Below, piece after piece: positions 14,615-45,163 of a stretch of DNA of 45,163 nucleotides (positions within the stretch are counted from its first letter, which is position 1; the number at the start of each line of letters is the position of its first letter). The stretch is from a virus. Its lineage: Duplodnaviria > Caudoviricetes. The notes under the pieces were generated by a model, which saw only the letters and a list, made by a program, of their open reading frames with translations, made no database searches and was not told the DNA's origin. Both the position numbers and the translations under genes were made by a program. The stretch covers positions 1-45,163 of the IMG/VR virus record IMGVR_UViG_3300030372_001396, one strand, 5' to 3'.

Positions 14615-14878
14615 TTAGAAGGGTATATCGTCTTCTACTTCTGTCTTGGCTTGTGGTTTGGCACCACTTCTCTTAGCCTCGTATGTTTCTTTATCTTCAA
14701 AAGAGATGGAGATATACTCATTGCCATTGCTAGCTGTTTTACTCCACCCTGAAACATAACCCTCAACACCATTGAATGTTACCAACCCTATAGTTTTCCA
14801 GTTAGGTCTTTTAGGATTGTCACCTACATCATTATGAAATAGGTTTGCTGTATTTGGTTTTGGTTTAAAGTCACTCAT
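14615..14878 (-). CDS. Single-stranded DNA-binding protein (small DUF736-like type)
   Basis: LFxN...NPKRPxW...VSGW.K...G.EYISIS core and acidic C-terminal DDIPF tail. Confidence 0.7.
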   Translation of the reverse strand: MSDFKPKPNTANLFHNDVGDNPKRPNWKTIGLVTFNGVEGYVSGWSKTASNGNEYISISFEDKETYEAKRSGAKPQAKTEVEDDIPF

Positions 14879-17345: not shown

Positions 17346-17374
17346 TAAACAATGGGAACCAAAAAAGGTTCCCA
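17346..17374 (-). promoter_or_regulatory. Early promoter, GGGAAC-N16 class (palindromic)
   Basis: TGGGAAC-N16-TGTTTA; inverted repeat TGGGAACC-N6-GGTTCCCA. Confidence 0.75.
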
Positions 17375-17380
17375 TGTTTT

Positions 17381-17701
17381 TTATCCTCTTAAATGATATG
17401 TAGCAAAGTTCCTACCTTCACCGCCACTAGTTTCTATTACATAACCCTGCTCTTTTAAAGTAAAGATTATGCCTGACAACCTAGTAGCACCATACTTTTG
17501 TATAGCTTCCCAAGAAGTTATTGTGCCATGCTCTTGCAAATGATTCAGCACAAACAATGTCTTGCTTGGTCTACCATTAACTGTTTCAATCCTACCTCTA
17601 CCTGTTTTTAGAGTAGGAACATTGGTATGTTTCTTTCTACCAGTAGCATAGGTTTTAGTATTGACAGCTTTCTTTCTGCCGTTTGCTAATGTTTTGGTCA
17701 T
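17381..17701 (-). CDS. Winged helix-turn-helix DNA-binding protein
   Basis: VLNHLQEHGTITSWEAIQKYGATRLSGIIFTLKEQGYVIET; basic N-terminal arm. Confidence 0.8.
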   Translation of the reverse strand: MTKTLANGRKKAVNTKTYATGRKKHTNVPTLKTGRGRIETVNGRPSKTLFVLNHLQEHGTITSWEAIQKYGATRLSGIIFTLKEQGYVIETSGGEGRNFATYHLRG

Positions 17702-17707
17702 TACGAT

Positions 17708-18448
17708 TCACCTCCCTTTGGTCCATTTAGTTTGACCCTTCAATCCACCTCCACAATGGTTGAAGTAGCCACAGTATTTTACATTGCACTCCCACTCATA
17801 TACTGGTGCGGTGCCAAGAGATACCTCTGGTATCCCAATTTTAAATCGTTCATTTACATCTTTCCAATACTCGTAAGCCTTGATAATAAAGGACTTAGGG
17901 ACATTGACTTCTCTCATCAGTGAGTTGTCTTTGTTGTAATAAACCAGTGCCAACTTCTTCAACTCAACACCATACTTTTGCTGATACCAATATGCATAAG
18001 TGCCTAGCTGCAACGCATAGTTCTCCGCTGGTTCAGGGTCTGGTGTTCTACCAAACAAGTTTCTCCACTTGAAACTATTACATGTCTTGACATCATACAT
18101 TGCATCATCATCCACTATACATATATCAAAGAATCCTCTGACATTTATATCCTGAATCCGTATCTCTTGTTCTATCAGAACATCAATCTTTTCTTTCTGT
18201 CCGTGCTTTACAAGTGCATCTTGTATGTCGTTGTGTACCAAGTCTCCAAGCCTAAACAATCTTAATGTATTGTCATCTATCTCTGTGCTTTCTACTTGCT
18301 CTACACTGTTATAGTATATCTTTCTCATGCACATCCCACTTGATGACGCATGAAACCAACTCTCCCTATCCTCGTATCTGTTGATACGGTTATCTTCGTT
18401 TAGTTTTTTAAGATAGCCTGCATATACTGTCTTAATATCAAGCATCAC
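17708..18448 (-). CDS. Cas4-like PD-(D/E)XK exonuclease with Fe-S cysteines
   Basis: ASSSGMCMRK, GDLVH, RGFFD...DVKT, QLxxY and C-terminal C-x4-C-x5-C. Confidence 0.85.
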   Translation of the reverse strand: MMLDIKTVYAGYLKKLNEDNRINRYEDRESWFHASSSGMCMRKIYYNSVEQVESTEIDDNTLRLFRLGDLVHNDIQDALVKHGQKEKIDVLIEQEIRIQDINVRGFFDICIVDDDAMYDVKTCNSFKWRNLFGRTPDPEPAENYALQLGTYAYWYQQKYGVELKKLALVYYNKDNSLMREVNVPKSFIIKAYEYWKDVNERFKIGIPEVSLGTAPVYEWECNVKYCGYFNHCGGGLKGQTKWTKGR

Positions 18449-18776
18449 CTAATCCCAACATATACACCTCGTCTTCATCTTGAAACTTTAACTCGTTCAA
18501 TCTGCAAACTTTTTTAATTGCATACTTTACAAGGGACATGAACTTATTTGTTTCATGTTCGTTCTCATAATTTTTTAGCACAATCATTTCTAGTTCTAGT
18601 ATATTTATAACCTCTCTACATAGCTCATTAGATTTGTTTGTATCCATCTTGTCAAACCCTACAATATGTTTACCAATATCTTCTTTGTGTAATGGAACTA
18701 CAATAGAGTATTCTCCTAGCTGCTCTAATTCTGCACGGCATTTTGATTCAATGCTCTCTGCTAAATATGTTCTCAT
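18438..18776 (-). CDS. Hypothetical protein
   Basis: 112 aa; GGGAG RBS. Confidence 0.65.
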   Translation of the reverse strand: MRTYLAESIESKCRAELEQLGEYSIVVPLHKEDIGKHIVGFDKMDTNKSNELCREVINILELEMIVLKNYENEHETNKFMSLVKYAIKKVCRLNELKFQDEDEVYMLGLGDA

Positions 18777-19001
18777 TTATTCTCCCTTCTGCCAATCTGG
18801 TTTCCATTTGTTTTCTTTTGCTAACTTTACAACATCCTCCCTTGTGCAGTATGTGTCTGTCTGATAATCATAGAACCTTAAATCACCACCATCGTCATCG
18901 TCATCTGGGTCTATCCTGTCTATGTATTGAAACTCAGCAAACTTATTTACTCTGAGAAATAATATCATGTTGTTTATATCTTTATCTGTGTATTCTTTCA
19001 T
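18777..19001 (-). CDS. Hypothetical protein
   Basis: 74 aa; GGAG RBS; ATGA overlap. Confidence 0.65.
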   Translation of the reverse strand: MKEYTDKDINNMILFLRVNKFAEFQYIDRIDPDDDDDGGDLRFYDYQTDTYCTREDVVKLAKENKWKPDWQKGE

Positions 19002-19288
19002 AGTTCAACTCCATCTTTGTTTCTTCTTAAATGCGAGTTATCAACTAAAAGTTCCCCAGTATTTTCATCAACAACATCTTGAATCTTTTGTTGTTCCTCC
19101 AACCACTCTGAGTCTTTTCGTTCATGAGTCCATGACAAGTCCCAAACTACTGAGATAAAATATGTCAACTCATTCTTTATCTCATGCGGTCTTTTGTGGT
19201 TGCAAAGCATGTCAACAAACTTTGACAGCTTGTCCATCTTTGCTCTTTGTTCTTTATCTTTCTTTGTGTGTATGTTATATCGTTCCAT
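18998..19288 (-). CDS. Hypothetical protein
   Basis: 96 aa; AAGGAG RBS. Confidence 0.65.
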   Translation of the reverse strand: MERYNIHTKKDKEQRAKMDKLSKFVDMLCNHKRPHEIKNELTYFISVVWDLSWTHERKDSEWLEEQQKIQDVVDENTGELLVDNSHLRRNKDGVEL

Positions 19289-19646
19289 TTAACCATCTCC
19301 TTATCGGTTTTGTTATGTAATATAATCCTGTCTCAAAAGTCATATGACTTACTAGTATGTGATTGTATAGTATATTACCTGCTATGGCTATATCTTTACC
19401 ATCCTCTATCTTGTGTGTCATACTCCACACTTTATTCAATCGTATCCTGTATAGGAAATTACCCATACCAAATAACTCTACATTGTAATCATTCAGCTCC
19501 ATGTCCTCATGCGTGTGCATGTCTTTACCCTCTAACTGATTGTTTAGTTCTATGTTTACCAGATTTTCAATGGCTTTTGTTTTATTTCTTGGCTCCTTGA
19601 ATCTGTATTTTGTTTTTATGTTTTCAAACTCTTTACTTATATTCAT
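19275..19646 (-). CDS. Hypothetical protein
   Basis: 123 aa; AGGAG RBS; directly after promoter 19672-19700. Confidence 0.7.
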   Translation of the reverse strand: MNISKEFENIKTKYRFKEPRNKTKAIENLVNIELNNQLEGKDMHTHEDMELNDYNVELFGMGNFLYRIRLNKVWSMTHKIEDGKDIAIAGNILYNHILVSHMTFETGLYYITKPIRRWLNGTI

Positions 19647-19671
19647 TTGTTCTCCTGTTTTATTTATCTAT

Positions 19672-19700
19672 TATACTATGTAAACCAATAAAGGTTCCCA
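19672..19700 (-). promoter_or_regulatory. Early promoter, GGGAAC-N16 class
   Basis: TGGGAAC-N16-AGTATA. Confidence 0.75.
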
Positions 19701-19713
19701 ATTATTTTTAGGG

Positions 19714-19789
19714 TTGAACCTCTGGCCGTGTTTACCAACATGTTTTATCCACCACTCCGTGATAGACTAGGCCGCCACCAAAGGCTCAA
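19714..19789 (-). ncRNA. Stem-closed small RNA
   Basis: 12-bp stem UUGAGCCUUUGG/CCAGAGGUUCAA with two G-U pairs closing 52 nt; starts 3 nt after the large RNA. Confidence 0.5.
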
Positions 19790-19792
19790 TCA

Positions 19793-20307
19793 TTTGTTTA
19801 GGGTAAAGGTTCCAACTACCTTTACATCCCTCCCCTATGCGTGGTCTATATCAAGAGACTATCATCCTAGACATTGATAATTTTTTCGTAAGTAGTATTT
19901 TCAAACTACTATCACTCATTCGGTTTCAGCGTTGTTGTCTTATATTTTTTTGGGACAACGGTATCTCCATACCCGCATCTAGGTCTATCTCCTAACCCTC
20001 AACACTTTCCTCTTGGGCATCCCAACAATAATAAATTTGGCTGGTTTCACTCCAACTCTCCCCTATTATTGTTGTAGTAGGTGAGTCCTGTCCTTATCAA
20101 TGTATAGAGCATGTTGCATACTCTATGACTTCCTGAACATCTCTATCATTCTCAATCACATAGGAACTGCTACATCTTTTTTATATCTACATGTTTCTTA
20201 TGATATAATCAAATGCGAGAGCAACACTCCTCAGCCGTAGCCTAGTAGTCCAAGTGCAACCTATACCAGAGCAACCCTCCCAACTTCGCAACAAGTTCCT
20301 AAACAAA
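19793..20307 (-). ncRNA. Large (~515 nt) ornate structured non-coding RNA candidate
   Basis: ORF-free; closed by a perfect 10-bp stem; at least eight further nested helices; G-U pairs consistently indicate the - strand; own promoter upstream. Confidence 0.7.
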
Positions 20308-20323
20308 ATTTTCAAATATCTTT

Positions 20324-20397
20324 TATAACTCGGGTGCCTTCAACCCCTAATAGCCATATCGTTGTTTTAGTATATACATAGGCACACCCAAGTTATA
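20324..20397 (-). ncRNA. Stem-closed small RNA at the start of the ncRNA transcript
   Basis: UAUAACUUGGG(UG)UGCCU/AGGCACCCGAGUUAUA 16-bp stem with a 2-nt bulge and 40-nt loop; begins 7 nt after the -10 element. Confidence 0.55.
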
Positions 20398-20404
20398 TAT
20401 TACT

Positions 20405-20433
20405 TATACAAATCTAATCAATAAAAGTTCCCA
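20405..20433 (-). promoter_or_regulatory. Early promoter driving the ncRNA array
   Basis: TGGGAAC-N16-TGTATA; no RBS or ORF downstream for ~750 nt. Confidence 0.75.
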
Positions 20434-20444
20434 ATTATTTAAAA

Positions 20445-20587
20445 CTAGTGGGGGCTTCTGAATATAATAGCCATGTAATAAGTCGTAAGATATTCTCATT
20501 TTTCGTATCCTACATTTTCTCTTACTACTTACTACCCTGACTAACACTCTTTCGCAAAGAGTGGCGACAATATCCACCACCCCCAAG
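20445..20587 (-). ncRNA. Stem-closed ~140-nt structured element
   Basis: UGGGGGU/GCCCCCA closing stem; internal CACUCUUU/AAAGAGUG hairpin; shares 10-mers with neighbouring RNAs. Confidence 0.4.
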
Positions 20588-20603
20588 TCTTTATAAATCT
20601 ATC

Positions 20604-20795
20604 TTATATCAAAGGCGTTTTCTCATTTGGGAACATAGCATTTAATACTATTGTTCTATCTCTTTCATTTTCAAAAGATAATACTATGCAATGTTGGTTA
20701 TTGTTATATCTATCTGGCTCTCTTGTTGAATAATCAACATCATTATTTTCATCAAAATAAATATATTCAATACACTTTTCATTATCTTTTACCAT
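20604..20795 (-). CDS. Hypothetical protein
   Basis: 63 aa; overlaps the upstream stop. Confidence 0.6.
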   Translation of the reverse strand: MVKDNEKCIEYIYFDENNDVDYSTREPDRYNNNQHCIVLSFENERDRTIVLNAMFPNEKTPLI

Positions 20796-21295
20796 GGCCT
20801 ACCTGTGTCAATGGTATACAGCAACTTGCTGTTATCATCCCAAGTCCTACCGCCTACGGTCCTGAATGACATAGTCCCATGATTATAACTCATGATAAAC
20901 TTGTCCTTGAATGTTGCAAGTTTATACCCTCCATCACTCGGCAAATCTTTGTTGATGCTATCAACCTTGATGCATCCAATACTACCGCTGTCCACATCAA
21001 TACCCCCAACTCTATTACCTGCTGGGCTTTTGATTGCATACCTTCCATCTCCATGTGCGGTGCCATAAATACTTATACTTCTATTGTCTGCAAGTTTTAG
21101 TTTACCTGACAACTGTATTGACTGAATCCAACTTGGATAGTCAACACCTTTACTGCCTGAGAATGGGAAAGTTAAATCACATACCTCACTCCATGCGTTG
21201 TCAATTACATAGCATAAATCTCCAATGTAATATCTACCTGCATCCATCATTTCTACTTCTTGTTCTTTATGTTTACTTTTAAATTGTATTTTCAT
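20789..21295 (-). CDS. Conserved phage hypothetical protein
   Basis: GRYYIGDLCYV...TAHGDGRY...VDSGSIGCI motif family; AAGGAG RBS. Confidence 0.8.
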   Translation of the reverse strand: MKIQFKSKHKEQEVEMMDAGRYYIGDLCYVIDNAWSEVCDLTFPFSGSKGVDYPSWIQSIQLSGKLKLADNRSISIYGTAHGDGRYAIKSPAGNRVGGIDVDSGSIGCIKVDSINKDLPSDGGYKLATFKDKFIMSYNHGTMSFRTVGGRTWDDNSKLLYTIDTGRPW

Positions 21296-21324
21296 AATGC
21301 TCCTTTGTTTTGTTATCTGTCCTT

Positions 21325-21358
21325 TAAATGTGGGAACTCAAATAAAGTTCCCACATTT
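21325..21358 (-). promoter_or_regulatory. Early promoter within a 13-bp-arm palindrome
   Basis: TGGGAAC-N16-CATTTA; AAATGTGGGAACT-N7-AGTTCCCACATTT. Confidence 0.75.
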
Positions 21359-21386
21359 CCACTTAACAAACAACAATTAATTTATT

Positions 21387-21836
21387 CTACCAACTACAAA
21401 TATAGTAGACTGCTTTGCCACTTTCAAATCTATCTCGTGCATACTCAATAAATTTTAAGTCCTGCTCTCTGTAATACTTGGCACTATCCTCCTGTGATTG
21501 ATGTCCCCAGAAGAAACCACCATCACAAAAATAGTCCATGTATCCATTGTTTACTGCCTTCTCTAATGAGTCAATGTCCTGTGGTTTCAATCTGATTCTG
21601 TTTGTCTTACCAAACTCTATCGGATACCATTCGTCATTGCCTCTGTCATACCATTTGTTTTTGATTCTCTTTCTTTTCATGTAAAGTCTTGTCATAAACT
21701 CCTGTAATCGTGCGTGTTTTCTCCACTCAAACGGCCCTACATTTGTCCATTTGTGAGTGCTTTTCTCTCCTTCTTTGTTTGTAAACTCATACTTATATTC
21801 ATGTTTTAGTTTACCTGCATTCTGGTCTAATCCCAT
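21387..21836 (-). CDS. Conserved phage early protein (MGLDQ...WRKH family)
   Basis: MGLDQ, WRKHARLQxFM, GFFWG, DLKFI and VYYxCSW motifs; GGAGG RBS. Confidence 0.8.
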   Translation of the reverse strand: MGLDQNAGKLKHEYKYEFTNKEGEKSTHKWTNVGPFEWRKHARLQEFMTRLYMKRKRIKNKWYDRGNDEWYPIEFGKTNRIRLKPQDIDSLEKAVNNGYMDYFCDGGFFWGHQSQEDSAKYYREQDLKFIEYARDRFESGKAVYYICSW

Positions 21837-22063
21837 TATATTCCTCCTGTTATTTGTTCCATATCACTATGTAAGCATAAGACTTGTATCTCGTCTGTGC
21901 TACATCCTTCACAAAAATATCTGCTGTCATCAATGTAATCTGAGAGTTCATCCGTGTTTATATATGTCCAACTTTGTTGTTGGACCTTATCACTGAAACA
22001 CTCTTTACATATATAACTTGCATCATTTTTTTCTGCTTGTTTTAAGTTTGTTATCTTGTTCAT
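21836..22063 (-). CDS. Zinc-ribbon protein
   Basis: CKEC...CEGC; start moved to MNKIT after AAGGAG. Confidence 0.7.
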   Translation of the reverse strand: MNKITNLKQAEKNDASYICKECFSDKVQQQSWTYINTDELSDYIDDSRYFCEGCSTDEIQVLCLHSDMEQITGGI

Positions 22064-22311
22064 TATACTCCTTTGTTTGTTATTTGTTCCCATACTTTTT
22101 TATCTCATCATCTACTTCACTTAACTTATGTTTAAACTGTTCCTCTAAATCTTCCCAGTCTGGTAAAAGATAAGTTTTACCTTCATCATCTGTTCTTTTC
22201 TCGCACCAAACTTCAATTTTTATTTCATAATTAATCTTATGTTTATCATAAGTATTAACAGTCAGTTCATTTATCTTGCTCACTTATACTCCTTTGTTTG
22301 TTATTTGTTCC
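22063..22311. repeat. 28-bp perfect direct repeat at gene junctions (22063-22090 and 22284-22311)
   Basis: TTATACTCCTTTGTTTGTTATTTGTTCC in both copies; spans the stop codon and RBS; similarity extends into the first codons. Confidence 0.85.
22080..22283 (-). CDS. Hypothetical protein
   Basis: 67 aa; GTG start after AAGGAG. Confidence 0.65.
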   Translation of the reverse strand: MSKINELTVNTYDKHKINYEIKIEVWCEKRTDDEGKTYLLPDWEDLEEQFKHKLSEVDDEIKKYGNK

Positions 22312-22537
22312 GTATTATTTTATAATGTTTTTTAAACGGTCCTTCTTTTACCTTTACATTATATCCTAATTCTCTAAATTGTTTTAACATCTCTTGCATT
22401 AAGGAATTATAATCACCCTTCTGCACTTTCATTGTTATGTATTCTTGTTCATGAGCTTCTACTTTATCTTCCAACTCTCTTGTGTATTCGTCATGCTCAT
22501 CTTGTGTCATCATTTTAAAAACATCTTCTCTGCTCAT
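22301..22537 (-). CDS. Hypothetical protein
   Basis: 78 aa; AAGGAG RBS. Confidence 0.65.
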   Translation of the reverse strand: MSREDVFKMMTQDEHDEYTRELEDKVEAHEQEYITMKVQKGDYNSLMQEMLKQFRELGYNVKVKEGPFKKHYKIIRNK

Positions 22538-22740
22538 TTGTTCTCCTTTTCAAATAATATTAAACCTACTTCTTGCACTTCAAATTCATCTTCATCTTCT
22601 GGCATATTACCATCTGCTATTCTTTGTTTATTATATTGTTCTAGCCACTTATCAAAGTTGTCTGTTGTAGCTTCATAAGTCATACTATTATCGTAATTAT
22701 AATAAATATTAAATAGTTTTATTTCCTTTGCATAGTTCAT
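22534..22740 (-). CDS. Hypothetical acidic protein
   Basis: 68 aa; AAGGAG RBS. Confidence 0.65.
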   Translation of the reverse strand: MNYAKEIKLFNIYYNYDNSMTYEATTDNFDKWLEQYNKQRIADGNMPEDEDEFEVQEVGLILFEKENK

Positions 22741-23030
22741 TTGTTCTCCTTTGTTTGTTCACTTCTCAGCATGTTATTCATTGACTGCACCACATAATAC
22801 AGCTCTCTCTTTGTCATCCTGTAATAAGTTATTTCTCTTGCTCCTCCGCCTTCGTTAACTATTTGTTCTAACTTACAGCCCCCATACGCTTGGCTAATAT
22901 AATAGCACCCTACATTAGAACTATATTTTCCGTCTTCTTTCTTTGTGTAGCTTTCTTGTGGCTGTCCTGTGAACTCGTTTAAGATGTCCACTTGGTTTTG
23001 TATGTGTTTAATCGTTATTCTGTTGTTCAT
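22737..23030 (-). CDS. Conserved phage hypothetical protein
   Basis: RITxKxI...N.G.YYISQAYGG..L....NEGGG...TKRELY motif. Confidence 0.75.
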   Translation of the reverse strand: MNNRITIKHIQNQVDILNEFTGQPQESYTKKEDGKYSSNVGCYYISQAYGGCKLEQIVNEGGGAREITYYRMTKRELYYVVQSMNNMLRSEQTKENK

Positions 23031-23061
23031 TATTTGTCCTTTGTTTGTTTGTTATACTCTA

Positions 23062-23090
23062 TAAACGCTGGGAACTCGTGAAAGTTCCCA
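23062..23090 (-). promoter_or_regulatory. Early promoter, GGGAAC-N16 class (palindromic)
   Basis: TGGGAAC-N16-CGTTTA; TGGGAACT-N6-AGTTCCCA. Confidence 0.8.
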
Positions 23091-23104
23091 ACTATTTATT
23101 TTAT

Positions 23105-23533
23105 TTAGTTTCTTTTGTGTTCGTCCTCGTCTTGTTTTACTATCATCTCATCGTAGTTCTTATCATCGTCTCGTGGATTCAGACTGTTGAACTCGCCGTG
23201 TTCGTATTCTAAGTCCTCGTCATACATGATAAGTTCATTTAATATTCTACTGACCAAAGCTTCTACACTATTTCCAAATTGATTTGACCTGTTGTAAAAT
23301 CGTAATGTATCCTCAAACGCTTGAAGATTCATATCTTGTATATTTCCTGTGCTAAATGGGGCGTTTCCGAATTTTTCTTTGGTCTCGTATTTTCCATCGT
23401 GCCAGTCTTTATCTTTATTCATTTTCATTCTGTAATCTGCAAATGTTGATAATTCATTTTTTATCTTTAATAGTAAATGCTCACTATTTGATAATGTAAT
23501 TTCTTTTCCGTTTGCTAATTTAACCTTTTTCAT
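23105..23533 (-). CDS. Hypothetical protein
   Basis: Start moved to MKKVK after AAGGAG; acidic C-terminus. Confidence 0.7.
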   Translation of the reverse strand: MKKVKLANGKEITLSNSEHLLLKIKNELSTFADYRMKMNKDKDWHDGKYETKEKFGNAPFSTGNIQDMNLQAFEDTLRFYNRSNQFGNSVEALVSRILNELIMYDEDLEYEHGEFNSLNPRDDDKNYDEMIVKQDEDEHKRN

Positions 23534-23563
23534 TGTTGCTCCTTTGTTTGTTGTTATATCATA

Positions 23564-23592
23564 TAAACGGCGGAAACCTTGAAAAGTTCCCG
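23564..23592 (-). promoter_or_regulatory. Early promoter, GGGAAC-N16 class
   Basis: CGGGAAC-N16-CGTTTA; imperfect palindrome. Confidence 0.8.
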
Positions 23593-23604
23593 CCAATTAT
23601 ATTT

Positions 23605-23892
23605 TTATATATATGTCCCTATGAACTTGTGAGAGTGGTTTATATTTACTTCTCTCTTATATTCATCCATTGCCATGCTGATGGCTCTTTGTCTGTCCCT
23701 TGTTAAATATCTATCTCCTTTGGTCATTGGGAATTTGACGCCGTTAAGTCTCACAATTAATCCATTGTCTTGGCTCAAATATTGTCCTTGCATGGTGCGG
23801 ACCTTCTTAATTTTCAGGGCCTGTAATCTTGCCCCATGTTTTTTATATAGTGTTCTAATTACTTTCTTTTCTTTCTTTGTTAAGTTTGCCAT
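23605..23892 (-). CDS. Hypothetical basic protein
   Basis: Start moved to MANLT after GGAGG. Confidence 0.7.
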   Translation of the reverse strand: MANLTKKEKKVIRTLYKKHGARLQALKIKKVRTMQGQYLSQDNGLIVRLNGVKFPMTKGDRYLTRDRQRAISMAMDEYKREVNINHSHKFIGTYI

Positions 23893-23928
23893 GTGGCCTC
23901 CTGTTCGTTTGTTAAATTTCATACTATA

Positions 23929-23957
23929 TATACTGGGTAAATCTGGGAATGTTCCCA
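23929..23957 (-). promoter_or_regulatory. Early promoter, GGGAAC-N16 class
   Basis: TGGGAAC-N16-AGTATA; TGGGAA/TTCCCA palindrome. Confidence 0.75.
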
Positions 23958-24097
23958 AAATAATTAAATTAATTTATTTCTATGACGACAAAATCCCATA
24001 CTGATAGCAAAGCCCCATTATAATTAGTTTTTAATGCTAACTTATGACCAAATGAGAAAACGCCGTAAAGGGCCAAAATAACGCCAAATAAGGCCTA

Positions 24098-24267
24098 TGT
24101 GTATAAGTTGTGGATATGTGTATAACTTGTGTATAACTATTAGACTGTGGATAACTTGTGGATAACTATTTTTATTATATTAATGGGAACTTTTAAAGCC
24201 CTATGGCATATATATAGTATGAACACAAGCGATAACAACCAGAACAATGTTAATAACTTGTGGATAA
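24098..24267. other. oriC-like cluster of DnaA boxes (putative replication origin)
   Basis: TGTGGATAA at 24146, 24157, 24259; TGTGTATAA at 24098, 24117, 24128; 1-mismatch box at 24109; all co-oriented, at the divergent strand switch. Confidence 0.8.
24184..24212 (+). promoter_or_regulatory. Early promoter, GGGAAC-N16 class (only + strand copy)
   Basis: TGGGAAC-N16-CATATA, between DnaA boxes. Confidence 0.7.
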
Positions 24268-24293
24268 CTTTAATTAAAAACAAAGGATATAAA

Positions 24294-24545
24294 ATGAGAA
24301 AAACACTAACAAACGCAAAGAAAGTAATTGAATTTAGAATTAAAGAAGAACAGGCAAGAATCAAAGAAGCAAGAGCAAACATGAAAAAGTTTGACAATGG
24401 AACAAACGCTTATGAGGAGGCAAGAATTATTTTCGGTGCATCTCTTCAATGGGAATCTTGTCTTAGAACTTTATTGGAGCAGGACTTATCAGATTTTAAC
24501 ATGAAATATTTTGATGAGTTGAATGAACATAAAAGTAAATTCTAA
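24294..24545 (+). CDS. Hypothetical helical protein adjacent to the origin
   Basis: ACAAAGGA RBS, ATG 24294, own promoter and terminator; the 24147 extension only reads through DnaA boxes. Confidence 0.7.
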   Translation: MRKTLTNAKKVIEFRIKEEQARIKEARANMKKFDNGTNAYEEARIIFGASLQWESCLRTLLEQDLSDFNMKYFDELNEHKSKF

Positions 24546-24563: not shown

Positions 24564-24595
24564 GGGTTGGGGTTTTCAGAATCTCAACCCTTTTT
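24564..24595 (+). terminator. Rho-independent terminator
   Basis: GGGTTGGGGTT/AATCTCAACCC stem followed by TTTTT. Confidence 0.75.
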
Positions 24596-24688
24596 GGAAT
24601 TTCCAACCACCCGCACGGGCGGGGGGTCTTCGCAATAAAAGAACGACACACATAATCCTAAAATTTTTTTGGGAAATTTTTTTCCGAT

Positions 24689-24806
24689 AGGGTTCCCGAG
24701 TATTAGGGTCCCTAATATTAGAGGGGGGGTTAGGGTTCCCAAATAAGGTTACCCTAATAAGAATACCTTAATAAGGTTTCCTTAATAGGGTAATACCTTA
24801 ATAAGC
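24689..24806. repeat. Cluster of short quasi-palindromic repeats (CCYTAATAWGG-like)
   Basis: About six variants: CCTAATATTAG, CCAAATAAGG, CCTAATAAG, CCTTAATAAGG, CCTTAATAGGG, CCTTAATAAG. Confidence 0.7.
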
Positions 24807-24890
24807 CTTCCAAAAGAGGTCTTTTAAGATAAGACATTTAAAGGGGATAGTCAAGAAATACTTTGTTTATGACACAAATAAATTTAATTC

Positions 24891-24928
24891 TTGTATTTAT
24901 AAACAAATTGTGTATAAATTGTGGATAA
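24891..24928 (+). promoter_or_regulatory. sigma70-like promoter overlapped by a DnaA-box pair
   Basis: TTGTAT-N18-TAAATT; TGTGTATAA at 24909 and TGTGGATAA at 24920. Confidence 0.6.
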
Positions 24929-28455: not shown

Positions 28456-28511
28456 TTTTCCACATGTTATCCACATTTTTCTTGCATTTATAGAGGGTAA
28501 AGAGTTAAATT
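28456..28511 (+). promoter_or_regulatory. DnaA-box pair plus sigma70-like promoter upstream of the portal
   Basis: TTTTCCACA at 28456 and TTATCCACA at 28467; TTGCAT-N18-TAAATT at 28482-28511. Confidence 0.65.
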
Positions 28512-40700: not shown

Positions 40701-43011
40701 TACTGATATTAAAATTGGAGAAGATGACCAAACAAAGATTGATTTTGAAACAGCAGATGAAATACATTTCTATGCTGCAAATGTAGAACAAGTTTATTTA
40801 GGAGATAATATATTTGGACCACAATCTGACAGTGATGTAGATTTAGGTTCTAGTTCTGTTAGATGGAAAGATGCTTATGTAGATAGCATTACAGTAACTG
40901 GAGAAGTAGACGGTGCTTCATTAGACATATCTGGTGACGCTGACATTGACGGTACATTAGAAGCTGATGCAATTACTATTGGCGGAGTAACCTTAGCAGA
41001 AACAATTAGCGATACAGTAGGAGCAATGGTAGGAAGTAATACTGAAAGTGGTATCACTGTAGCTTACCAAGACGCAGACAATACTTTAGATTTTACTGTT
41101 GGTACTTTAAATCAAGATACAACAGGTTCTGCAGCAACTCTTACAACAGCAAGAAATATTGGTGGAGTAAGTTTTGATGGCTCTGCTAATATTAATTTAC
41201 CTGGTGTAAACACTGGCGGTAATCAAGATACTTCAGGTAACGCAGCAACAGCAACAGCATTAGAAACAGCAAGAAATATAGGTGGCGTATCATTTGATGG
41301 TACAGGAAATATCAACCTACCAGGCGTAAACACAGCAGGCAATCAAGACACTACTGGAAATGCAGCCACTGCAACTGCATTAGCAACAGCTAGAAATATC
41401 CACGGTGTTAGCTTTGACGGTACAGGAAATATTGATTTAACAGAAGTTATAGAAGACACTGTAGGAGCTATGGTATCTTCAAATACTGAATCAGGTATTA
41501 CAGTAGCTTATCAAGATGGCGATGGTACTTTAGACTTTACAGTAGGTACACTTAATCAGGATACGACTGGTAACGCAGCAACTGCTACAGCTTTAGCAAC
41601 TGCAAGGAATATTCACGGTGTTTCTTTTGACGGAACAGGCAACATAGATTTATCTGAGGTAATTCAAGATACCGTAGGAGCTATGTTCTCTTCTAATACA
41701 GAAACTAGAATCACTGCTACCTATCAAGACGCAGACGGTACAATAGATTTAGTTGTTGATGATTTAGATACTGATACACAATTATCAACAGAAAATGTCC
41801 AAGACATTGTTGGTGCTATGTTCTCAAGTAATACTGAGACTAGAATCTCAGCTACATACCAAGACGGAGATGGAACGATAGACTTGGCTGTAGACGATAT
41901 GACTGCTAATGACAATACTAATCAACTTACTACATTCCAACTTGAGGATGGTGACGGCACAGAAGTTACTATTGCACACGGTAAAGAAATTAAGTTTGTA
42001 GAAGGTGGTGGTATTGATATTAATTTTACTGACACTTCTACAGGTAGTGATGGAGACCCATTTGATTTAACATTTACAGTTTCATCTCAAACTGATAACA
42101 ACTTTACAAATGCCGACCATAGTAAGTTAGACGGAATAGAGGCAAGTGCAGATGTAACTGATGCTACAAATGTAACAGCTGCTGGTGCATTAATGGACAG
42201 TGAGTGTTCTAATCTATCAGCTGTTAAAGGAATAAACCAAGCATTAACTACAAGTTCTGATGTACAATTTGGAGATGTAACTCTTGGAGGTATTGTTCTT
42301 GACGGTAATACTATTTCTGGTATTGATGATTCTGGAGAATTTACTAATAATGATGCTCACATTATGACTTCCGCTGCAGTAGAAGATAAAATTTTAGGTT
42401 ATGGATATACAACTAATACTGGAGATATTACAGGAGTAACAGCAGGCACAAACTGTAGTGGTGGAGGAACTAGTGGAGCTGTTACTATTAATGTTGATGA
42501 CGCTTTTTTAAAGAACGATGCTGATGATACGACAAGTGGAACCATAACTGCTGCTGGATACAATACAGCTTCTGGTAAAATAGGAGATGTTGATGATGAG
42601 TATATTGATTTTGGAACTGCTGGTGAAATACAATTTAAAATAGATAATGTTGAAGATTTTATGATGGCAGATGGTGGAACATTCCACGCAAACGCAGATA
42701 TTATTGCTTCTTCTGGTAGCATATCATCAGATAAAAAACTTAAAAAGAACATTGTAGATGTTTCGTATGGATTAGAGGATATATTAAAACTTCGTGGTGT
42801 AGAGTTTGATTGGAAAGAAAAACTAGATGGTAAGCACGATATTGGATTTATAGCACAAGAAGTTGAAGAGGTTATTCCAGAACTTGTAAAAGAAGTAGAA
42901 GGATTAAACGATGAAGAATCTCACTTAGTTGTAAACTATACAAATGTAATTCCAGTATTAGTTGAAGCAATCAAAGAATTAAAAGCTGAAATAGAGGAAC
43001 TTAAGAAATGA
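37720..43011 (+). CDS. Long repetitive tail fibre with a C-terminal peptidase S74 intramolecular chaperone
   Basis: ELNILDGVT, QDIVGAMFSSNTET and ARxIxGVSFDG repeats; SDKKLKKNI...IGFIAQEV...LVEAIKEL chaperone. Confidence 0.9.
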   Translation: MATLTGQRIKDSYKDLLQVSNSNSGIDSTLRAVSDGEATDSVLQLSSAAVNISSAGALQYAGVAITSTAAELNILDGATITVSELNILDGVTATATEINLLDGVTATTSELNILDGVTATASELNILDGVTATASELNIMDGVTATTAELNYVDGVTSNIQTQLDSKISATLTQEQVEDFVGGMLDGTETGISVSYDDTDGNIDFVVATQSDNNFTTTLLNKLNAIEASADVTDTSNVTSAGALMDSEVTNLSLVKGLTSGISSGNVLVANSAVADNDFLKIDGTSVEGRTAAEVRSDLNVEDGATADQTNAEIRTAVEAASDSNVFTDDDHSKLNAIEASADVTDTANVTSAGALMDSELTSIADVKALDQSVVSGATPTFTTTNFTDASNKRLMTDAQETKLDSVESNATADQTDEEIQDVVGAMFSSNTETGITATYQDGDGTIDLVVGTLNQDTTGTAAKVTVSDSTANTNFPVVFHDESNALLDDTGALRYNPSSGTLLVPNLSVAGTTTTVDTVTMEASNAIIFEGATADANETTLSIVDPTGDRTINLPNVSGTIPVLAAASTTQISSTPEELNILDGVTSTAAELNILDGVTSTAAELNILDGATVVVGEINYLDLGSTAVGTAIASKAVVLDSNKDYTGIRNLTITGELDGGSLDISGDADIDGTLETDALSINGTAVSSTAAELNVLDGYTGSVTELNYLDTLHATGVTATEFDYLDGVTSSIQTQLNAKIEATLTTEQVQDIVGAMFSSNTETRISATYEDGDGTIDLVVDDMTADTNTQLSDEQVQDIVGAMVSSNTETGIAVTYQDGDGTLDFVVATLNQDTTGNAATATALETARTIHGVSFDGTANIDLSEVVQDTAGGMFSSNTETFITATYQDADGTVDLVVPVLDEDDLSSDSASHLVTQQSVKAYIDAQVAASGSGDITAVTFQTDSGSGSKASDTGGSADFSLLGGDGIGITNSGTTITAAVAAAQTTITSLLATDIKIGEDDQTKIDFETADEIHFYAANVEQVYLGDNIFGPQSDSDVDLGSSSVRWKDAYVDSITVTGEVDGASLDISGDADIDGTLEADAITIGGVTLAETISDTVGAMVGSNTESGITVAYQDADNTLDFTVGTLNQDTTGSAATLTTARNIGGVSFDGSANINLPGVNTGGNQDTSGNAATATALETARNIGGVSFDGTGNINLPGVNTAGNQDTTGNAATATALATARNIHGVSFDGTGNIDLTEVIEDTVGAMVSSNTESGITVAYQDGDGTLDFTVGTLNQDTTGNAATATALATARNIHGVSFDGTGNIDLSEVIQDTVGAMFSSNTETRITATYQDADGTIDLVVDDLDTDTQLSTENVQDIVGAMFSSNTETRISATYQDGDGTIDLAVDDMTANDNTNQLTTFQLEDGDGTEVTIAHGKEIKFVEGGGIDINFTDTSTGSDGDPFDLTFTVSSQTDNNFTNADHSKLDGIEASADVTDATNVTAAGALMDSECSNLSAVKGINQALTTSSDVQFGDVTLGGIVLDGNTISGIDDSGEFTNNDAHIMTSAAVEDKILGYGYTTNTGDITGVTAGTNCSGGGTSGAVTINVDDAFLKNDADDTTSGTITAAGYNTASGKIGDVDDEYIDFGTAGEIQFKIDNVEDFMMADGGTFHANADIIASSGSISSDKKLKKNIVDVSYGLEDILKLRGVEFDWKEKLDGKHDIGFIAQEVEEVIPELVKEVEGLNDEESHLVVNYTNVIPVLVEAIKELKAEIEELKK

Positions 43012-44138
43012 GCTTGACTGCATCAGGACAAATATCAATGCACGATATAAGAAGTGAACTAGGAGCTAGTGGAGAAATATCTTTAATAGATGCTTCTGAC
43101 GGTAGTATAGCAACTATTAATACTAACAATGCAAGTGATGATAGACCAGACGGTAGTGCACCACACGCTATGAGTGAGTTTTATAGTTATGACCACGATG
43201 CTGCTGGTGCCACATCATTTGGTACTTGGAGTGATGCAACAATAAGATTTGTAGGTAGTAGCCCTGGTGATGGAGTAACTACACACGCACTAAGTACAAA
43301 TGATATGTCAGACCCAACTGGTAATGTAGGAATAGATTCTAACACAGATTCTGGAACAGTAAGAGGAAGTTGTTTAGTTGCTATATCAAGCACAGGAGAC
43401 CCTGGAACTGCTTCAAGTAGTTTTGGTGGTGGTACAAGTAATAGTGGTAGTGGGTATGAAACTATAGTAAATAATTCTGCTATAGGTAGTGTAAGTATGA
43501 GTTCATCAAATGATACTATTAACGCAAGATTTGCTTTTAAACCACACGCAGTACACACTGAGACGACTACTAGAACTTTAACTTGGACAGTAAACAGTGT
43601 AACTAATGATGACATGACTGTGTTTTGTAGTGTTACAAGCTTTGGTGGATTTTGTGTAGGAGAGTATGTTCCTGTAAATACACAAGGTGGATACAAACAT
43701 ATATCAGAACTAGAAGTTGGAGATTCAGTAATGTCATACAACTTTGAAACAAACTCTGTAGAAGAAGCACCTATTTTAAAAATAGAAAAACCTATGCACA
43801 CCGACTTAGTAGTATACAGATTTGATGATATGGATGATATACAATATAAACACGGTAATACTGTAACTATAAATAAAGGGATTACAATAACTAAAGACCA
43901 TCCTATATATAAAGAAGACGGAACTATGGTTTGTTTGGACCCAGCAAAAGCAAAAGAATTATATGGACTAGACGCACAAGAAATACAAAAAGGTGACAGA
44001 ATAAGATTTATGGATAAAATTAGAGAAGTTAAAGACTATTTAAATTCTCCAGAAGAATTACAAACCTATACAATATTAACAAAGAATAATAACTTTTATG
44101 CAGGTGGCGTATTAGTTCACAGTGAGATTTCAGAATAA
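43008..44138 (+). CDS. Tail-fibre-associated protein with a C-terminal Hint (intein-like) domain
   Basis: SGQISMxDIxxE N-terminus; Hint domain from Cys216 (43653): CV...ISELEVGD, TKDHP, NFYAGGVLVHS. Confidence 0.85.
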   Translation: MSLTASGQISMHDIRSELGASGEISLIDASDGSIATINTNNASDDRPDGSAPHAMSEFYSYDHDAAGATSFGTWSDATIRFVGSSPGDGVTTHALSTNDMSDPTGNVGIDSNTDSGTVRGSCLVAISSTGDPGTASSSFGGGTSNSGSGYETIVNNSAIGSVSMSSSNDTINARFAFKPHAVHTETTTRTLTWTVNSVTNDDMTVFCSVTSFGGFCVGEYVPVNTQGGYKHISELEVGDSVMSYNFETNSVEEAPILKIEKPMHTDLVVYRFDDMDDIQYKHGNTVTINKGITITKDHPIYKEDGTMVCLDPAKAKELYGLDAQEIQKGDRIRFMDKIREVKDYLNSPEELQTYTILTKNNNFYAGGVLVHSEISE

Positions 44139-44591: not shown

Positions 44592-44993
44592 ATGAACTTA
44601 TATTATGGTATCTTTTGGTTACTTGGATTGTCGTTGTGGCTTACGCCATTACACTCTCAAGGTAAGTTAAAAGATTTACAACAAATACAATTATTAAGTC
44701 AAGACGAATGTGTTATAGTTCAAGTTAATGCAGACTGGAATATAAAGGCTTCTATGGATTTAGGTAGACTAAAAAATTGTAAGTGGTTTAACGCAAGCAT
44801 TGATGACAAACAATATGGAGCTATATTAGCTAATGAATGGAATATTAAATCAGTTCCAACTATTGTAATGTTTGAGTATGGAAAAGAAATAAAAAGATTT
44901 GAAGCTGGTTTGTCTTTTGATTTAGATGAAGATAAAATTAAAAGAGAAATTAATAAAGAAATAGATAAAATAATGTTAAGGAGATTTCAATGA
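44592..44993 (+). CDS. Exported thioredoxin-fold protein lacking CxxC
   Basis: Signal peptide; VIVQVNADWN in place of WCxxC; IKSVPTIVMFEYGKEIKRF cis-Pro motif. Confidence 0.75.
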   Translation: MNLYYGIFWLLGLSLWLTPLHSQGKLKDLQQIQLLSQDECVIVQVNADWNIKASMDLGRLKNCKWFNASIDDKQYGAILANEWNIKSVPTIVMFEYGKEIKRFEAGLSFDLDEDKIKREINKEIDKIMLRRFQ

Positions 44994-45163
44994 TGTATTA
45001 CTTAAGTATGTTTTACAAGCAAATATTAGCAGGGTTATTGCTACTAAGTTTTACATACGCACAAGACTTTTTTAAGTTTAGTACAATATACGGTGCGTAT
45101 AGTTTTAGTAGTCCAGTAACTAAAGAGTTGCAATACCAGGTGTCTGGTGGCCAACTACAAGAG
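44990..45163 (+). CDS. N-terminal part of an exported protein (3' truncated; probably continues as 2..877)
   Basis: AAGGAG RBS; ATGA overlap; 58 open codons to the window end; signal peptide KQILAGLLLLSFTYA|QDFF. Confidence 0.7.
   Translation, partial: MMYYLSMFYKQILAGLLLLSFTYAQDFFKFSTIYGAYSFSSPVTKELQYQVSGGQLQE

Follow-up and report, generated by a model that had tools for sequence, protein, structure and literature searches.

The window analysed here is the whole 45,163-nucleotide stretch of IMG/VR virus record IMGVR_UViG_3300030372_001396, an uncultured marine tailed phage (Duplodnaviria; Caudoviricetes), and the element in question is a cluster of binding sites for the bacterial replication initiator DnaA (DnaA boxes) at 24098-24267. 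The boxes are most likely docking sites which would let host DnaA tune phage transcription and be soaked up, rather than a replication origin. The reading tentatively preferred here is that host DnaA sites have been built into promoter and control regions of the phage and, in the clade to which the window belongs, expanded into an array.

Exact TTATNCACA boxes occur nine times in the record, compared with a mean of 3.66 (sd 1.87) in shuffled sequences. Eight are on the minus strand (24098, 24117, 24128, 24146, 24157, 24259, 24909, 24920) and one on the plus strand (28467), and one-mismatch boxes are present at 24109 (ATATCCACA) and 24248 (TTATTAACA). An earlier sequence-only reading had described six exact and two degenerate boxes in 170 bp, co-oriented, mostly 11 bp apart and placed at the divergent strand switch. 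A motif scan and shuffles bore this out: 24098-24267 holds six exact and two one-mismatch boxes, all co-oriented, between the leftward gene at 23892 and the rightward gene at 24294, and its six exact boxes compare with at most 2 per 170 bp (mean 1.04) over 300 first-order Markov shuffles. Pairs with a start-to-start distance of 11 bp are 24098/24109, 24117/24128, 24146/24157, 24248/24259 and 24909/24920. The pairs at 24909-24928 and 28456-28475 were absent from the earlier account. All nine exact boxes are intergenic, with none in coding DNA against about 3.3 expected, as are 10 of the 12 TT[AT]TNCACA sites; intergenic DNA makes up 7.6% of the record in the gene list of this analysis. The box-bearing elements are the following.

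24098-24165, minus strand: five exact boxes and one one-mismatch box in 11-bp-phased pairs, TTATACACA three times (24098, 24117, 24128), TTATCCACA twice (24146, 24157) and ATATCCACA (24109)
24248-24267, minus strand: tandem pair in the predicted leader of an 83-amino acid (aa) gene, TTATTAACA and TTATCCACA
24909-24928, minus strand: tandem pair before the late operon, TTATACACA and TTATCCACA, ending 22 nt upstream of the first late start codon (24951)
28456-28475, plus strand: tandem pair in the terL-portal gap, TTTTCCACA-tg-TTATCCACA, opposite in orientation to the other pairs

The pair before the late operon overlaps a weak sigma-70-like TTGTAT-16-TATAAA, and the terL-portal pair forms an insertion of 23 bp, with a conserved CTTGCA...TAAATT block just downstream. 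With at least five high-affinity boxes in a short stretch the array has the box count of titration loci, and as a consensus-box cluster with at least one tandem pair spaced by no more than 3 bp it also has the box arrangement of oriC-type regions.

Selection on the boxes was assessed in an alignment (A1) of the window with three IMG/VR contigs (L009, L007, and L020) found by a search with the neighbouring 143-aa protein. Of the columns at fixed box positions 2 of 47 vary, compared with 8 of 15 spacer columns and 49 of 172 columns of the left flank (Fisher p 7e-5 and 2e-4); at the free fifth position 2 of 6 columns do. All four sequences are closely related, which makes this the evidence of a single lineage. 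Orthologous boxes alternate between TTATACACA and TTATCCACA, the sole change permitted by the DnaA consensus (A/C at the free position). This pattern supports a reader with DnaA specificity, and the 9-mers qualify as genuine consensus DnaA boxes on which selection acts. Among the differences listed for four runs of other studies, those in the array fall only at the spacer positions 24107 and 24108, and they were not counted as evidence.

The array adjoins a recurrent promoter-like motif. Exact GGGAACNTT sites were found nine times, spanning 17365-24193, against 0.94 expected in shuffles (shuffle maximum 5). Each is co-oriented with the following gene and is succeeded by a TATA-type hexamer 18-20 nt on, then by a Shine-Dalgarno sequence and a start codon, and the arrangement GGGAAC-N18-20-TATA may represent an early promoter class. 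Its -35-like part resembles the GGAAC elements of extracytoplasmic function (ECF)-type promoters; no sigma factor gene was found in the record. Several of the GGGAACNTT motifs form GGGAAC...GTTCCC inverted repeats. The distance from the array end to the sole rightward GGGAAC copy (24185) is 19 nt, and the switch region contains:

24185-24218, plus strand: predicted rightward promoter, GGGAAC at 24185-24190, 18-nt spacer, TATATATAGT at 24209-24218
23923-23956, minus strand: predicted leftward promoter of the same type, GGGAAC at 23956-23951, TATATATAGT at 23932-23923
24166-24184, no strand assigned: AT-rich spacer of 19 nt from the last box to GGGAAC, UP-element-like

The AT-rich stretch beside the boxes, placed earlier at 24166-24183 and here at 24166-24184, is real. 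Among the non-overlapping 20-mers of the genome only three are less stable; taken as a 50-mer, the stretch reaches only the top 0.9%. The 20 positions upstream of GGGAAC hold 19 A/T here and 14-20 across all nine motifs (genome mean 13), and the leftward promoter, without adjoining boxes, has 20 of 20. The stretch is accounted for by the promoter class.

Relatives were collected through TerL, with 596 of 599 candidate stretches confirmed, about 700 estimated in the collection and 80 loci kept; intermediate relatives have TerL 82-88% identical to that of the window and distant ones about 72%. Conservation of the box cluster in relatives, which had been proposed as a check, held in part. The array is kept in L009, L007, and L020, which with the window form the closest clade, and was found nowhere else; intermediate relatives retain one pair, and no boxes were seen at the switch in any distant locus with enough upstream sequence. 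The single pair, orthologous to 24146-24165 and 17 nt upstream of GGGAAC, is present in all four aligned intermediate loci (L014, L026, L032, L039), and in 5/5 aligned lineages 17-19 nt separate the proximal pair from the GGGAAC downstream of it; another intermediate locus, L034, has no pair. The extra boxes of the window occupy a stretch which in the aligned intermediate loci holds another GGGAAC copy.

The other pairs come and go. The leader pair (24248-24267) is absent from L009, L007, and L020, where another gene is present, and is near-identical in L014 upstream of its rightward promoter motif; in L014 a second, degenerate pair precedes a second GGGAAC motif. The late-operon pair occurs in 9 of 24 sequences (perfect in 3, with one mismatch per box in 6) and is absent from 15, and the terL-portal pair occurs in 5 of 9 aligned sequences, three others having a clean gap. 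Since pairs recur before the late operon and as an insertion in the terL-portal gap, they behave as small cassettes at intergenic control regions.

In the preferred reading the boxes bound by host DnaA would be those upstream of the rightward promoter, in the leader, over the late-operon start and between terL and portal. At the first three of these places, the first being 19 nt ahead of the -35-like element, bound DnaA would raise or lower transcription, and early-right and late expression would become tied to host replication and growth state. Growth from one ancestral pair to six or seven sites would allow cooperative, oligomer-type binding, and accumulating phage copies would also draw DnaA off the host origin. 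Boxes at a fixed promoter position, as expected of DnaA-regulated promoters, are what was found, the promoter itself being a predicted one.

The record is 100% complete by CheckV, has a GC content of about 35%, and contains no end repeats or tRNA genes that could be found. Rightward genes run from 24294 to the record end and on to 13925, and encode a metallophosphoesterase, TerS, TerL, portal, capsid, adaptor, a 1763-aa fibre, holin, an SLT-domain protein, a 1333-aa protein and large unassigned proteins. The leftward small early genes, from 23892 to 14216, encode Erf, a PD-(D/E)XK exonuclease, a winged-helix HTH_39 protein, a weak RusA-like match and an SSB-like protein. Both record ends (1-877 and 44990-45163) cut open reading frames (ORFs) running in the same direction, for which reason the record is probably a circular or permuted assembly opened within a gene. 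No DNA match to the phage collection was found for the record. TerL and capsid are at most 29% identical to those of cultured phages, TerL shares no more than 26% identity with any entry of the phage collection, and a TerL scan of 185,579 species genomes returned no relative. The cumulative GC skew has its minimum at the array, between the first leftward gene (23892, probable start) and the first rightward gene (24294); as origin evidence it was rejected, because skew follows the coding strand throughout the genome and is uninformative on replication.

Two side observations concern other parts of the genome. A 376-aa protein (43008-44138), encoded after the 1763-aa fibre, has weak Hint and pretoxin-HINT matches (E 5.5e-4, below the Pfam cut-off). 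About 670 nt without an ORF (19730-20400, minus strand) lie downstream of the GGGAAC motif at 20432; they fold at -179.4 kcal/mol, where 20 shuffles average -159.3 (z -3.7), have no Rfam match at E<=1, and are possibly a large structured phage RNA.

The sequence-only reading had listed Erf, an exonuclease, an SSB with a DDIPF tail and a resolvase, and had recognised no polymerase, primase, helicase or O/Rep-type initiator. The positive list was confirmed, the RusA-like match being weak (E 0.003). The negative one was upheld by all scans: no polymerase, primase, helicase, AAA+ loader or initiator was detected by PHROGs (60 ORFs), Pfam (50 ORFs, E<=0.1) or NCBIfam (22 ORFs), and no Rep, O, DnaD or DnaC-type family among the 50 ORFs searched with Pfam (E<=0.1) or in PHROGs and NCBIfam. 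Real ORFs contain no canonical Walker A motif, the single match sitting in a spurious antisense frame, and DnaA domain IV (PF08299) is absent from the six frames of the record and five relatives. Early ORFs do not exceed 246 aa. As far as sequence profiles see, this holds as a phage without recognisable replication genes, in which a small novel initiator is possible. Three late-operon proteins of 724, 504, and 397 aa are unassigned, and tblastn of the 724- and 504-aa proteins against the phage collection gave no match. The nearest named ESM Atlas clusters of the 724-aa protein are a phage stabilisation protein (0.93) and the crAss muzzle (0.91), a weak pointer to tail-type clusters and no more than a lead. 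The late-operon position, the lack of NTPase and polymerase motifs and the Atlas lead suggest that all three be treated as structural. The recombination genes include:

14615-14878, minus strand: SSB-like protein of 87 aa, unusually short, ending in EVEDDIPF, the bacterial SSB tip motif

The tip motif of Escherichia coli SSB binds PriA, primase and other host partners. Since the SSB-like protein bears this motif, a PriA-type, recombination-linked start would, by analogy, be an available alternative route for replication.

Poverty in replication genes extends to the relatives. The complete intermediate relative G001 (100% complete) has Erf, HTH_39 and exonuclease genes and three consensus boxes in all; the complete distant relative G002 (100% complete) has DUF932, HNH and exonuclease genes and ten scattered TT[AT]TNCACA sites with no cluster. 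No replication genes were found among the 43 scanned non-structural ORFs of at least 90 aa in these two genomes. Going by these gene contents, the poverty is a family trait and the array a clade trait, and this removes the chief argument for the array as a necessary origin. Because distant relatives with the same poverty lack the boxes, these would be accessory and not the replication start of the family. The first early gene at the switch of distant relatives encodes a 309-330-aa protein (L084:6693-7637, L086:6402-7331, L069:7464-8456), of which the window has none; the L084 and L086 copies match DUF932 (PF06067), and the L069 copy has no Pfam match and shares a weak phrog_21518 match with L084.

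The immediate surroundings of the array contain the following further features.

23605-23892, minus strand: first leftward early gene, 95 aa, basic, with homologues 38-60% identical in intermediate relatives
24057-24096, no strand assigned: two direct repeats of about 19-20 bp with GCC/GGCC cores
24294-24545, plus strand: 83-aa gene behind the predicted rightward promoter, no family match, a variable cassette
24564-24590, plus strand: terminator-like hairpin and T run, closing the short rightward unit
24591-24900, no strand assigned: non-coding element at the head of the late operon, with a G6 block, a ACACACATA block, an A/T run and then clade-specific short repeats

The repeats at 24057-24096 had been described as short phased A-tract/GCC repeats; repeats are indeed present there, but they resolve into two direct copies with GC-rich cores. 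They are retained by intermediate relatives having just one box pair, and could be a site for a phage protein. A block TTATTTCTATGACGACAAAAT (23975-23997), just upstream of the leftward promoter motif, is kept nearly letter for letter in L026, L032, and L039 and is a possible operator. The 83-aa gene is swapped for unrelated small genes in L009, L007, and L020, and a contig in a run of another study (X16) joins 24220 to 24489 with 229 other letters. The element at 24591-24900 is common to all three relative groups. Its repeats are CCCTAATA-type and TTAGGG-CCCTAA palindromes in the window and about 20 TACTATATA-type units in distant relatives; Rfam gave no match at gathering scores and one chance-level miRNA match (E 0.17). 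TerS of the window is just 37-44% identical to that of distant relatives. At the level of the family this element is a better candidate than the array for the packaging site (pac/cos) or the origin.

The 95-aa protein retrieved four homologues, all close. It was considered as the box binder and set aside, since L034 retains the protein and has no boxes. AlphaFold2 models of this protein (mean pLDDT 48.5, 8-row alignment) and of the 143-aa protein encoded at 23105-23533 (mean pLDDT 49.0, 4 rows) are unusable, and for the latter the ESM Atlas held no usable match.

Several points weigh against DnaA sites in promoter regions as the explanation. The promoters are predicted solely because their motif recurs, and the blocks that look like promoters at the late operon and between terL and portal match poorly. 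A simple sigma-70 scan gave 7 sites against 7.9 in shuffles, i.e., no excess, and the sequencing runs listed as containing the region include no RNA run. Six to seven co-oriented, 11-bp-phased sites exceed what ordinary DnaA-regulated promoters carry and resemble the oligomer-forming arrays found in origins, in datA or in the box clusters of Bacillus subtilis. Replication must start somewhere, yet no initiator was found, and the 20-mer adjoining the array is among the least stable of the genome. The genes behind the rightward promoter are variable and point to no regulatory logic, and the relatives are phylogenetically nested, so that presence and absence count as few independent events.

Some of these points lead to the unlikely but possible explanation that the array is a DnaA-dependent origin, at which DnaA oligomerises, opens AT-rich DNA and loads host DnaB, after which Erf, the exonuclease, SSB and RusA drive recombination-dependent replication. 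The lack of a recognisable initiator, helicase, loader, primase and polymerase would fit, as would the co-orientation, phasing and strong purifying selection of the sites, the very unstable 20-mer abutting them, a position between divergent promoters as in many origins, and the EDDIPF tail of SSB, which suggests host replisome partners. In E. coli the unwinding element lies 5' of the boxes as read TGTGNATAA (R1 and the DNA unwinding element, DUE). Geometry was judged with this orientation and with rules for boxes, spacer and trios taken from section 13 of PMC8287927, in which tandem boxes with 2-bp spacers, as in the array, form the box part of the basal unwinding system. Unwinding would thus be expected left of 24098, with at least three NAN trios within 16 bp. 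On this canonical side the best NAN-trio run of the outermost box is 3, at spacer 15, a value reached by 40% of random positions (background P 0.40). The best run anywhere, 6 by the leader pair, has a background P of 0.034 with nine boxes tested and no correction, and is not kept in L014. The AT-rich stretch, 19 nt long and common to the promoter class, is on the opposite side from the unwinding element of E. coli and B. subtilis; the canonical side has the GC-cored repeats, and no AT-rich element lies beyond the trios there. The array is limited to the closest clade and is missing in G001 and G002, equally free of replication genes, which would need the same origin. A single origin leaves the pairs at 24909 and 28456 unexplained, pairs recurring at three other intergenic places, and a separate repeat-bearing element is family-wide. 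As to an iteron origin, no Rep or O gene was found, and iteron-type repeats by the boxes are just the two of about 20 bp at 24057-24096, those of CCCTAATA type being 500 bp away. The proposal of an oriC mimic with initiation by host DnaA is partly supported, namely in the consensus boxes, the missing initiator and the recombination module with a host-type SSB tail; geometry, relatives and the extra pairs speak against the whole. Titration of DnaA, put forward in the same proposal, is possible. An origin and a set of promoter-linked DnaA sites are not mutually exclusive. Their combination, in which a promoter-proximal pair became a six-to-seven-box array serving as initiator-less DnaA origin and copy-number timer, one host protein starting replication and scheduling the late genes, is improbable. 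In this scheme the boxes of the multiplying genomes would drain DnaA, host initiation would stop, and the box-covered late promoter would be released.

It is decidedly improbable that the boxes are chiefly a DnaA sponge, with about 10-12 high-affinity sites per phage copy draining DnaA and shutting host initiation, in the manner of datA or of box clusters, and promoter proximity incidental. Such a role would agree with the growth of a pair into an array in this clade, with the fit of all sites to the high-affinity consensus, with the lack of exact boxes in coding DNA and with the frequency of tandem pairs in viral contigs. Perfect tandem TTATCCACA-NN-TTATCCACA is estimated to occur in about 2500 IMG/VR stretches (124 were counted in 4 of 64 parts and scaled up; some may be host or plasmid DNA), where chance for 18 fixed bases would give about a handful on an assumed collection size, and several contigs (loci L095 onwards) have two or three tandem pairs within 100 bp. 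A sponge needs no fixed promoter distance, however, yet the proximal pair holds its 17-19 nt throughout the aligned lineages, and distant relatives manage without boxes. Just as small a chance is given to a phage protein with DnaA-box specificity reading the sites as operator or iterons and perhaps competing with DnaA, the candidates being the HTH_39 protein (17381-17701) and the small array-adjacent proteins. HTH_39 homologues are present in box-bearing lineages (the window, G001, L032, and L033) and not in box-free G002, but this co-occurrence is phylogenetically confounded and amounts to about two independent lineages. The 143-aa gene is confined to the array-bearing clade, and pelagiphages of the HTVC010P type are reported to have a DnaA DNA-binding domain (PMC8477408); against this, that domain was not detected in the record and the five relatives scanned, the site of an unrelated protein would hardly by chance agree with DnaA at each of the eight fixed positions and be free at the fifth as well, and the models of both array neighbours are of no use.

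Host DnaA sites in promoter regions, the reading preferred here, have cellular parallels. Non-origin DnaA clusters and promoters with regulatory and titrating roles include dnaA, nrdAB, mioC, and datA in E. coli and the clusters near sda and ywlC in B. subtilis; datA also requires an IHF site and serves in DnaA-ATP hydrolysis. In these, as in the window, consensus boxes are grouped in promoter regions outside an origin; here, in contrast, they are on a virus genome and box pairs act as small insertions. Iteron origins needing DnaA (P1 oriR, RK2 oriV, pSC101) likewise have DnaA boxes by direct repeats and AT-rich DNA, but they always come with a Rep gene, and none was found here. The basal unwinding system of oriC, as outlined in the section of PMC8287927 cited above, shares co-oriented tandem boxes with 2-bp spacers, whereas the window has no above-background trios on the canonical side and, opposite to it, only a short AT-rich stretch.

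It is already known that host DnaA can act on the DNA of phages and plasmids, as with lambda pR/pO (PMC3985674) and the T5 boxes (bioRxiv 10.1101/866236). In lambda, DnaA footprints boxes near pO and stimulates pR-driven activation of ori-lambda (PMC3985674). The likeness lies in host DnaA boxes adjoining phage early promoters and in host initiator status feeding phage development; in lambda the two boxes are downstream of the promoter, and the phage itself encodes an initiator and a loader (O, P), whereas the phage studied here has up to seven phased boxes upstream, extra pairs and no O/P-type genes. The injection-stop region of T5-like phages has eight paired DnaA boxes, for which membrane tethering during injection is proposed (bioRxiv 10.1101/866236). 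In both phages conserved paired consensus boxes stand in non-coding DNA that is not thought to be an origin; in T5 the pairs are 3 bp apart within inverted repeats of the terminal repeat, and here they are promoter-adjacent at the early/late switch. HTVC010P-type pelagiphages are marine podoviruses whose early and late genes lie on opposite strands; they have an exonuclease, lack DNA and RNA polymerases, and depend on the host (PMC8477408). Gene layout, exonuclease, lack of polymerases and host dependence are as in the window, and the DnaA domain IV gene is theirs and absent here. A literature search at the level of titles and abstracts found no tailed phage initiating from DnaA boxes without its own initiator and no promoter-linked DnaA-box cassettes in marine phages, which is no proof of absence.

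Many abundant marine phages have no replication genes, and the present case bears on how their copying starts and their expression is timed. Selection here clearly acts, in such a phage, on the binding site of the universal bacterial initiator, with cassettes by promoter-like motifs and an array in one clade. This raises the question whether phages of this kind read host replication status via DnaA, drain DnaA or initiate with it. Given the estimated number of IMG/VR stretches with tandem pairs, the principle may be widespread and under-described.

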